Shown here piece by piece: positions 17,101 to 20,100 of a DNA stretch of 64,000 nt. Positions within the stretch are counted from its first letter, which is position 1, and every line of letters starts with the position of its first letter. Origin of the DNA: Escherichia coli O157:H7 (GTDB taxonomy: Bacteria; Pseudomonadota; Gammaproteobacteria; Enterobacterales; Enterobacteriaceae); assembly GCF_013167455.1 (NCBI RefSeq), contig NZ_CP038328.1; one strand, 5' to 3'. Made by a program: the position numbers.

Positions 17101-20100
17101 CGTTCGGGAAAAACAGCGTGGTAAACAGAGGGCTGAATTTAAAATCCGCAATATCCCCGCGATTCAGGTACATGAAAAGCTGGTTAGTGTTAAGTGCCGT
17201 TGCTTTGCCTGCCATTATTCACCCCCATAATTTTTATGCATCCCAAGCGCCGCAAGTAAATAAGAGCGTACAAGTGAACCTATCGACGGCTCCGGCGTCA
17301 TCAGCGGATCCAGTCCAGCCGCAACGCCAGCTTCATAGTTTTTTTTGTGGCGCTGCTTGAGCACCTCCACGATTTCGGGGCTTATGTACACCGAAACACC
17401 GCTTTTTTTCTCTTCAGCCATAGTAAGAAATTCCTCTTCGACTAAAAAAATCATAACTGGATGTTTATCCAGTCCTGATTATAATCAGAATTGCATTTTA
17501 TGCAATGATATTGAGTTATGTTGCAAATTATGAAATGATTATCCCGATCACGAACGCCAGTGCATCCAAAAACCTCATATGCAAAAGCCCGATAAGAACC
17601 CTCTGACCTTATCGGGCTTTTTTTGGGCGCAAAAAAGCCGGATTGCTCCGGCTATGTGTGCTGTGTGCTGGCTCAGTCTCTGATCTCTTTCAGAAATTCT
17701 ATCAATGCATCTATCTGTTCAGGATTTACCGCCAGCATTTCACCGGATAGAGCACATCTCACAAAACCATGCTGATCCTTTTCAATCAGTGCGCCCGTCT
17801 CCAGGAATGCGCGGTAATCATTGATGCTCATCGTCTCCATGTTGTCAGCATGGTATTTATCACGCTGTTTTAATATCTCATCAAATTTCATCGGCATTGT
17901 TTTTTTCCTCTGTTGTGTCTGTTTGTTTCAGATAGTAACTATGCCTGACCGTGACGAAAACCCGGTAATGCGCCATACCGTTTCAACTGGTGCAAAAAAA
18001 GCCGGATTTCTCCGGCTGTTTGATTAGCTGTCCTGGTAATTGCGCCATATTTCATCACCAGCACCATCTATACCCATTTCGGCATAAGTGCGATCGACTG
18101 CCTTTTTCAGGTCTCCGAAATTATCCGGCGGCTCCGGTGCCCTCTGTGCCTTCCTTGAACATTCCAGCCGTCGCATCGTGATGTGATGCCGTTCCTTGTC
18201 TGTCTCCACCAGCTGCATGACTTCACCCCATCGCGCCGCCGCCCTCCGGTAAAAGCCTTTCGCCTCCAGTTCCTCCGCTATGCGGTCATGTACCATCGTC
18301 ACCCCCTCAGAACGAAATATCATCACCGTAAGGGTCATCGCCTCCCGCTGGTGGCTGATTACCCTGTGTGCCTGTGGTTTTGCGTCTGTTCCCGCCTGGA
18401 CGTGCCGCGCGGGCACTGATTACGCTGTCTGCGATAACCTGCCAGCCCTGCCGCGTTTCTCCGTTCTGTCCGGTCCACTGGCTTACCTGCATCGTGCCGG
18501 ATACGCTGGCAACATCGCCTTTTTGATGTTTAGCCAGGAAGCCGGCCTGTTTGCCAAATGCGATGACCGATAACCATAACGTCGCCTGTCCGTCCTGTGC
18601 CTGGCTGCATGGCAAAGATACCGCCATACGCGCCAGCGTCATCGGTGTGCCCTTGCTGGTCTGTTTTACCTGCGGGTCGTCCACCAGCCGCCCGTAAGCG
18701 GCTATCTGTGCCGTCATAATTCCACCTCTCCGGTTTTAACGTTGATGGTTGTTACCTGTTCCGCTTCGGCAATCTCCCGTTCTGTCAGCGTGGCAAAGTT
18801 TGCCGCCGCCGTGGTCATGAATGCGCTTATCAGGTCGGGATGTTCCTTCGCGTATCCTTCCCGCGTGTGGCGGTCTATCGTTCTGATTGCCACCTTTAAG
18901 GTGTGCTCAGTCATGTCTAACGCTTTATATTTTGGCTCTGTTCTGTCTCTGCGTTTTTGGGTCATTTCTCGCAACCTCTCACTTTTTCGCCTCACTTTTT
19001 CAAGCGTCTCACTTCGTCGCAGTTGGGATTTTCGGTTTTTCTATGTGTGTGTTTCATAAGTATTTTTTTACCCCTCACTTTTGAGGATGTATACAGGTCG
19101 AAAAGTGAGGGAGAGCGGGCTAATTTTGGCCCTCTTTCTATCCCCCTCGCTTTTGCTCCTCACTTTTATAGCGGCGCTACATCATCCCCATCGATACGAA
19201 TAACCCCATCTTTTTCCAGCTTGTACAGCCAGCGCCGGAAGTTTTTCATTTCATACCCCAGCTTTTTCATGTCATCACGTAACAGCGGGATCGTGCACTT
19301 GTCGCCGTTCTGTGTGCGTGAACGGATGCACCCCCATAGCGCGGTATGGTTTTCCGTCTTGTTCCCTGCCTCCTCGATGCGCTCCAGTTCAACAGGAGGG
19401 CGCGGATCATCCACCACCACCAGCGACGTGATTAATTCACCGTCAGCGTCGGTAAAAAGCTCCACCACGCGTAAGTCATATGCGGCTTCTTTGAGTTCCT
19501 CCGCGTCCTTCATTTTGGTGCATGAGATAACCAGCGCTTCGCTTCCTGCGTCCTCCCTGCGTATCCGGTATTCAGCATCCAGCGAAGCACGAAATGCACT
19601 GGAACCGCGCGCGCCTTTCGTCTCATCCTTGCCGGAATGGTGAACCACCAGCACCGTGGCCCCTGTGCGTCGTTTCAGTTCGTCACAACCACGGATAAAC
19701 GCCCCCATATCACGGGAATCATTTTCATCATTCCCACCAAAGCAACGCGCCAGCGTATCCAGAATAATCATGCGTACAGGTTTACCCGTTTCCCGCTCCA
19801 CCTGACGGGCAGCGATAACCATTTCATCAACATCAAGCGGGGCAGCCGGAAAGATGGGGCGGTTTACCAGATACAGATTTTTCACCTGCTCATCGTGCAC
19901 AACCTCCCAGGCTTTTACACGACGCGGAACACCTATACCGCCTTCACCAACCACATAGAGAACCGCACCATGTGCAACCCTGCGGCCTCCCCACTGGCGA
20001 CCAGTGGCAACATGGCACGCCCACGATCCGGCAAGGAATGATTTATAGGACCCGCTAGCCCCGTATATGCTGCATAGCGATACCGCCGGAATAATCCCCT

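Follow-up and report, generated by a model that had tools for sequence, protein, structure and literature searches.

The SaPI origins of Staphylococcus aureus are reportedly marked by rep-specific iterons located 3' of rep. For Gram-negative phage-inducible chromosomal islands (PICIs), the published account locates the origin (ori) directly past the 3' end of rep, where an AT-rich region lies between two sets of iterons, and describes this layout as common to all the islands that the authors identified (Fillol-Salom et al., 2018; PMC6092414). The study also reports that plasmid maintenance was obtained with the rep-ori segment of the island EcCICFT073 and failed when rep or ori was mutated (PMC6092414). 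EcCIRM12579 is listed as a PICI at ycfD-phoQ in Table S1 of that study, and the supplement gives the O157:H7 copies as the same element as EcCIRM12579 (Fillol-Salom et al., 2018; PMC6092414).

Here we describe a repeat array found in a stretch of 64,000 nucleotides of Escherichia coli O157:H7 DNA (contig NZ_CP038328.1), which is called the window below and to which all positions refer. With a probability of roughly 85%, the O157:H7 copy of EcCIRM12579 has its replication origin in this array, and the 9-bp repeats are iterons bound by the island's own Rep. The array is the expected origin of a catalogued satellite island and already known in kind, and since both the kind of origin and the island are in the literature, the novelty is low. 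The modest new points are a replicon cassette unlike that of the tested sibling, a junction inside rep, and one Rep residue that tracks one iteron base.

The Island and Its Genes

The island spans 11.2 kb (13499..24718, minus strand) between roxA (ycfD) and phoQ, and is bordered by direct att repeats (AAATATGTCC) at 13499 and 24709. Its genes lie on a single strand (minus) and include int, AlpA-like, Icd-like, DUF4222, rep, SSB, PerC, major capsid, decoration and terS genes, among them an Icd-like pseudogene. The integrase gene occupies 23308-24537 and the AlpA-like gene 22755-22943, both on the minus strand. The DUF4222 gene (20563..20862, minus strand), which is common to islands with different rep types, is directly upstream of rep (19166..20566, minus strand). 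The first gene past the putative origin encodes an 83-aa protein (phrog_1231; 18714..18965, minus strand) with no function assigned, and it is followed by the gene for a single-stranded DNA-binding protein (SSB; 18307..18717, minus strand), a part of the island replication module. The homologue of the small terminase subunit, TerS, is encoded at 14638-15180 (minus strand). An integrase, an AlpA-type regulator, unidirectional genes, a size within about 10-15 kb, its own att sites and a gene set free of tail and lysis genes make the element a PICI.

Over its whole length the island is 99.89% identical to EcCIRM12579 of E. coli O55:H7. One conservative residue differs in Rep and one base in the origin gap, and one iteron site has decayed since the O55:H7 ancestor. 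The island was not matched to any named Sakai prophage-like element, as the published excision data (PMC2669165) give no ycfD/phoQ landmark.

The Repeat Array

The array (18969..19167, minus strand) takes up the 200-bp gap that separates the rep stop codon from the gene that follows. Its unit reads AAAAGTGAG on the coding (minus) strand and CTCACTTTT in the plus-strand form. Exact copies of CTCACTTTT number six in the 64-kb window, compared to an average of 0.56 in shuffled sequences, none of which (0/100) reached six. Five of the six are inside 18978-19167, at 18978, 18991, 19074 and 19159 in the plus-strand form and at 19101 inverted, and the sixth is a lone copy at 27192, outside the island. 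An earlier note on this DNA had reported at least six copies in both orientations within about 200 bp directly downstream of the replication gene. The location was borne out in full, as the array spans the gap and its first copy runs into the rep stop codon. The count stands if one mismatch is allowed, which adds a copy at 19146 (CTCGCTTTT), whereas the exact copies are five; both orientations do occur, but only one copy is inverted and the rest run the other way.

On the coding strand, counted from rep, iteron 1 (AAAAGTGAG; 19159..19167, minus strand) overlaps the stop codon (19166-19168), and iteron 2 (AAAAGCGAG; 19146..19154, minus strand) carries one mismatch at a place where all five E. 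coli relatives have a perfect site. After these two direct copies come iteron 3 (19101..19109, plus strand), the sole inverted copy, and iteron 4 (AAAAGTGAG; 19074..19082, minus strand), an exact copy with which it forms a dyad. The dyad is a perfect 11-bp inverted repeat (CCCTCACTTTT / AAAAGTGAGGG) with arms 18 nt apart. Past it lies a 45-bp stretch of low GC content, and then three to four direct copies ending at the ribosome-binding site of the 83-aa gene. These are iteron 5 (19008..19016, minus strand), which reads CGAAGTGAG (CTCACTTCG on the plus strand) and appears in the alignment with relatives as a decayed copy with the AAGTGAG core intact, iterons 6 (18991..18999) and 7 (18978..18986), both exact copies of AAAAGTGAG on the minus strand, and a degenerate core at 18969..18973. 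The latter, the eighth site, is GCGAG on the minus strand (CTCGC on the plus strand), where the aligned relatives hold a full site and EcCIRM12579, L005 and L007 have GTGAG. In total, four exact copies point one way, one exact copy is inverted and three copies are degenerate. The 3' end of iteron 7 (GAGAGG) probably serves at the same time as the ribosome-binding site of the 83-aa gene.

The sites thus fall into two sets, 19074-19167 and 18969-19016, separated by an AT-rich segment (19028..19073) with 20-30% GC per 20-nt window as opposed to 45-60% in the flanks. This segment is the putative site of DNA melting and helicase loading. An 8-bp palindrome, TGTATACA (19088..19095), is found at the centre of the iteron 3/4 dyad. 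It is constant across iteron classes in the E. coli and Klebsiella relatives; since no more than 24 of 74 relatives have it at this offset, it does not define the family.

The short length of the unit is the one property that would fit chance clustering or low-complexity sequence, and this explanation can be given next to no weight. Five exact 9-mers are found in 205 bases where 0.003 would be expected from the rest of the window (Poisson P ~3e-15), the shuffled sequences fall short of the observed count, and the positions are conserved in relatives. Similarly, there are six AGTGAG cores for an expectation of 0.064 (P ~9e-11). The array is the joint densest 9-mer cluster in the window, tied with a lambda-type origin at about 3500. 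That second origin, at 3480-3620, is situated inside an O-like gene.

Scans of the gap and its surroundings yielded few other signals. The promoter scan found no sigma-70-like promoter in 18600-19500, and the terminator scan found one hairpin, at 19117-19132 on the non-coding strand, and none on the coding strand; after these two scans the array was dropped as a candidate for a simple promoter or terminator. A non-coding RNA was rejected as well, since the Rfam scan of 18700-19400 returned only a far sub-threshold SprD match (19.8 bits against a gathering score of 100). No DnaA box was detected in the gap or within 2 kb, the nearest ones being at 21552 and 21678.

The Rep Protein

The 466-aa Rep consists of an N-terminal domain (residues 1-125), a RecA-fold helicase core and a C-terminal winged helix. 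The N-terminal domain is common to the primase-type Rep of EcCICFT073 (62% identity). A Pfam AAA_25 match spans residues 148-315, with K175 as the Walker A lysine. In a sequence search of solved structures the best match, RSF1010 RepA helicase, was weak (E 0.0055), and a fold search was therefore required to place the domains. The AlphaFold2 model of the core matches KaiC, Rad51 and RSF1010 RepA, all of which have the RecA fold, and RSF1010 RepA (PDB 1g8y) aligns to the ATPase core with a Foldseek E-value of 1.7e-5 and a TM-score of 0.60 on the target. Rep is consequently a RecA-fold RepA-type helicase and not an AAA+ protein, and the AAA+ label that the replication gene had been given before has to be withdrawn. 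Neither the Pfam nor the fold matches contained a recognisable primase or superfamily-3 domain.

Codons 405-466 (19169..19354, minus strand) are predicted to encode a winged helix-turn-helix, modelled by AlphaFold2 as three helices and a beta hairpin with block-mean pLDDT values of 82-92. The best fold matches of this C-terminal domain are winged-helix DNA binders (IclR-type, LexA, Fur, DtxR, the DnaD N-terminal domain and ORC), at probabilities of 0.9-0.98 but, for this small domain, with weak E-values of 0.05-0.2. Residue 442, an asparagine in the context K-N-F-R-R-W-L (codon at 19241-19243), sits in the model where the third helix begins. The predicted winged helix, together with the co-variation of the repeats and this residue described below, suggests that Rep would bind the 9-bp repeats via its C-terminal domain.

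Repeats Follow rep among Sibling Islands

Islands at the same chromosomal site allow the repeats to be compared between different rep backgrounds. EcCICFT073 has the same site and gene order as the window island, its rep encodes a 584-aa primase-family protein, and its gap contains about ten CTGTCTACC-type repeats and no GTGAG. The island L004 also combines a primase-type rep with CTGTCTACC-type repeats, yet in DNA sequence it matches the window at 93% identity over the 83-aa and SSB genes. In L007, on the other hand, the capsid gene is of the type found in L004, but the rep is RepA-type and the repeats are GTGAG. The repeats hence track rep and neither the genes that flank it on either side nor the packaging module. 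By this comparison the iterons are specific to the cognate Rep. The 83-aa gene does not set the specificity, as it is also conserved in islands whose iterons are unrelated. The swap junction lies within rep, past the shared N-terminal domain, and siblings at one chromosomal site have exchanged the helicase, the DNA-binding domain and the origin as a unit.

That the repeats follow rep counts against two other explanations. In one of them they would be operator or promoter elements for the SSB, PerC and capsid genes, acted on by Rep or another regulator, and would have no origin function. The array does end at the ribosome-binding site of the next gene, and iteron-binding initiators often regulate transcription too. 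Nevertheless, the promoter scan found no sigma-70-like site, the genes downstream of the array stay 90-93% identical while the repeats change with rep, and the layout centred on an AT-rich segment fits the tested origin (PMC6092414). We regard this explanation as improbable, although a regulatory side-role of the repeats besides origin function is possible. In the other, the repeats would be a packaging signal (cos or pac) for the island small terminase. A TerS homologue is encoded in the island, and terminase sites can contain repeats, but the array is 3.8 kb from terS, L003, L006 and L007 differ in their packaging modules and keep the repeat type that goes with a RepA-type rep, and L004, which has the L007-type capsid gene, has a different rep and different repeats. 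A packaging signal is accordingly very improbable. The array's interpretation as a replicon-specific origin, already put forward in the earlier note, has been strengthened by both the linkage to rep and the agreement with the published PICI layout of two sets around an AT-rich segment.

Concerted Change of the Repeats and Residue 442

Six E. coli islands, the window one included, have a RepA-type rep, and their sites are found at the same eleven positions. The core columns of these sites are 95% conserved in comparison to 78% for the spacers (permutation P < 5e-5). The fourth core base is A (GTGAG) at all sites of L005 and L007 and at 9 of 10 in the window, the tenth being degenerate. In L006, L002 and L003 nine or ten sites out of ten read GTGGG, and the inverted copies show the matching change. 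The DNA identity between the window and L006 is above 0.9 over most of rep, 0.83 in the winged-helix codons, 0.6 in the gap and 0.95 in the next gene.

A wider survey covered 80 loci, one genome per species, and at each locus the most repeated short word was called in the 300 bases past the rep stop codon. The co-variation was seen across about 60 relatives. Among relatives of the same rep family the repeat copies change together, from GTGAG to GTGGG, GTGGGGG or TGCGGC. Asparagine at residue 442 goes with (AAAA)GTGAGGA (the window, L005, L007 and about 20 Xenorhabdus loci), histidine with GTGGGGA (seven loci), serine with TGCGGCA (five loci) and lysine with GTGGGGGA (27 of 34 aligned Lys-type loci, in Serratia, Pectobacterium, Erwinia, Morganella, Photorhabdus and others). 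In the C-terminal alignment column 442 has the highest mutual information with the repeat class, 1.56 of 1.67 bits, and the uncertainty is low both ways. When both characters are traced by parsimony on a neighbour-joining tree of the helicase core alone, the repeat class changes seven times and so does residue 442; because the joint score is seven as well, every change coincides. More distant Rep homologues from other proteobacteria have 7-14 copies of another 7-mer just downstream.

De novo motif calling failed at about 10 loci, among them L011 and L017, which have degenerate TGAGGA sites, and L024, L039 and L053, which are truncated. No repeat array was found downstream of an intact-looking Rep in L063, L065, L067, L070 and L078, and with five such relatives the link between rep and the repeats is not universal. 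Furthermore, the relatives share ancestry, and part of the co-variation could therefore reflect co-inheritance of linked DNA and not contact. The seven coincident changes and the local peak of divergence argue for functional coupling of Rep and the repeats.

Asn is often paired with A, and Lys or His with G, where proteins contact DNA, and a direct contact of residue 442 with an iteron base may be envisaged. In the most specific form of this proposal, residue 442 at the start of the recognition helix reads the fourth core base (Asn-A, His/Lys-G, Ser-C), and the winged helix and the origin make up a swappable cassette; we would give this even odds. If true, it defines replication-specificity groups among phage satellites, and the specificity could be re-programmed by one substitution and matching iterons.

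A Circular Klebsiella Element

A search of plasmid records at the protein level brought up pKp_Goe_795-4, a circular record of 16,971 bp from Klebsiella pneumoniae that lies outside the sample on which the pairings were established. It is a capsid-encoding island and has genes for an integrase, a capsid, an adaptor and a terminase. Eighteen genes are annotated, many as hypothetical, and the sole one identifiable as a replication gene encodes a 61%-identical Rep with serine at the key position. As the serine rule predicts, the gap contains eight TGCGGC repeats in the same architecture as in the window island, with three direct copies, one inverted copy, the CCTGTATACA palindrome, one direct copy, a spacer and four direct copies. 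The deposit of this element as a closed circle indicates, indirectly, that an element with a RepA-type replicon can persist outside the chromosome.

Proposed Function and State of the O157:H7 Origin

The observations can be combined into the following model. Induction of the island by a helper phage would lead to its excision and to production of Rep, whose winged helices would bind both iteron sets: three to four sites, including the inverted pair, on the rep side and three to four beyond the AT-rich segment. This 45-bp segment would then melt, and Rep would load itself there as the replicative hexameric helicase, with no DnaA box required for initiation. The host primase and polymerase and the island SSB, encoded two genes downstream, would copy the circle.

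Whether this origin still fires in O157:H7 deserves separate consideration. The O157 copy has 7-8 recognisable sites, the fewest of the six E. coli islands (10-12 in the relatives), and an unrelated hairpin, rich in GC, stands in place of part of its left set. Degeneration has affected four ancestral positions, one site was lost since O55:H7, and the island contains the Icd-like pseudogene. For these reasons the origin may be weakened, and one could go further and see in it an origin by descent that no longer fires, a decaying relic in a vertically inherited, immobilised island. Yet Rep is full length, its Walker A motif and all family-invariant residues are intact, and it differs from the O55:H7 protein by a single conservative change, while five perfect sites, the dyad and the AT-rich segment are retained. 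A relic is in our opinion unlikely, if less so than the other explanations considered above.

The island beside phoQ in O157:H7 thus carries its own replicon. It is a replicon of their own that enables such islands, upon activation by a helper phage, to amplify and to spread at high frequency, which is textbook knowledge for this group. This island also encodes a member of the PerC family, which has been linked to virulence-gene control. The pairing of residue and repeat gives a simple testable rule as to which satellite Rep fires which origin, and this rule bears on the compatibility of co-resident satellites and on the engineering of islands as delivery vehicles.

Comparison with Known Replication Systems

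Classical iteron plasmids (pSC101, R6K, F and P1) and lambda have regular iterons of 17-22 bp and non-helicase initiators, and DnaA boxes are usual. The array resembles their origins in having repeated initiator-binding sites beside an AT-rich segment. It differs from them in its short and irregular units (9-11 bp, at spacings of 10-56 bp and with one inverted), in its helicase initiator and in the lack of a DnaA box in the gap and within 2 kb, and does not belong to this class.

RSF1010 RepA (PDB 1g8y) is among the closest solved structures for the ATPase core and is the closest replicative helicase. It has no DNA-binding domain of its own, and a separate protein, RepC, binds the iterons. The island helicase, in contrast, carries the winged helix itself. 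In this respect it resembles the alpha protein of satellite phage P4, in which a helicase and a C-terminal DNA-binding domain for short repeats are likewise found in one protein, an arrangement that would permit self-loading. P4 alpha is a primase joined to a superfamily-3 helicase and needs two separated repeat loci, ori and crr. The island differs in having one locus, a RecA-fold core and no recognisable primase domain; it cannot be placed in the ori-crr type, since the one exact copy of the motif elsewhere in the window (27192) is not part of the island.

The SaPI origins share the position 3' of rep, the two iteron sets that flank an AT-rich region, iterons matched to their own Rep, and an initiator that is also a helicase. 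The helicase family and the island lineage are different. EcCICFT073 shares the roxA/ycfD-phoQ site, the att core, the gene order and the gap 3' of rep, in which short repeats of both orientations likewise form one set on each side of an AT-rich segment. Past residue 125, however, its Rep is unrelated (a 584-aa primase-family protein as opposed to a 466-aa RecA-fold helicase), and its repeats are CTGTCTACC in place of AAAAGTGAG; the laboratory test concerns the EcCICFT073 version only. From EcCIRM12579 the O157:H7 island shows no material difference, and the array described here is in all probability the origin of that element.

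Rep architecture and replication cassettes

The first 125 residues of Rep, the 466-aa RecA-fold helicase of the island, are encoded at 20192-20566 and share 62% identity with the start of the primase-type Rep of EcCICFT073, a sibling island occupying the same chromosomal site. Beyond this N-terminal domain, for which no Pfam match was obtained, the two proteins are unrelated. The end of its coding sequence is also the limit of the DNA matches to islands having DUF927, DUF5906 or primase-type rep genes. Replication cassettes are therefore swapped at a junction inside the gene.

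According to the rep ORF lengths of the related loci L008-L078, the core comprising the helicase and the winged helix comes in three N-terminal formats: with no extension (~350 aa), with a 125-aa domain as in the island Rep (~455-470 aa) and with a larger extension (~680-700 aa), the last of which is probably primase-bearing. The downstream iteron layout is identical across all three formats. No repeat array is present in the 300 nt after rep in L063, L065, L067, L070 and L078 (originating from Klebsiella sp., Tatumella, Sodalis, Acerihabitans and a metagenome bin). The winged helix of these five Rep homologues looks intact, and their origin is either located elsewhere or lost.

Within the left iteron set of the island, the plus strand carries a GC-rich hairpin and, after it, a T-rich run (19117-19132; GGGCTAATTTTGGCCC TCTTTC), both antisense to rep. 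Relatives have an iteron and an AT-rich spacer at this position, and this 35-bp stretch displays only ~60% identity to every one of them, even where the iteron type is shared.

Candidate regulatory region of the island

The 10-bp palindrome GGTAATTACC occurs twice in the stretch 22039-22083, at 22041-22050 and 22071-22080, the copies being 30 bp apart. The second copy lies directly against the start codon of a 57-aa Arc-like repressor ORF (22081-22254, plus strand), which is divergent from the main operon of the island. The two palindromes resemble operators of the island regulatory switch. In RefSeq this stretch is annotated instead as an Icd-like pseudogene. An Icd-like gene of the island, at 22104-22697, is labelled in RefSeq as an incomplete pseudogene; it is in the same state in the O55:H7 copy of the island, and its decay is thus older than O157:H7.

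Circular satellite and lambdoid origin

Among the related loci, L090 is the circular, 16,971-bp Klebsiella pneumoniae "plasmid" pKp_Goe_795-4 (CP018459.1). It encodes an integrase, a capsid protein, a head-tail adaptor and a terminase, and is a capsid-encoding phage satellite caught as a closed circle.

The island iteron array shares its rank as the window's densest 9-mer cluster with repeats at 3480-3620, where five copies of the ~18-bp palindromic unit TTTACCTGATTCGGGTAAA were found. All five are housed in a lambda O-like replication initiator gene (3033-3857, minus strand), adjoined by a P-like helicase-loader gene (2335-3036); these repeats make up a classic lambdoid origin, which belongs to a neighbouring prophage remnant.
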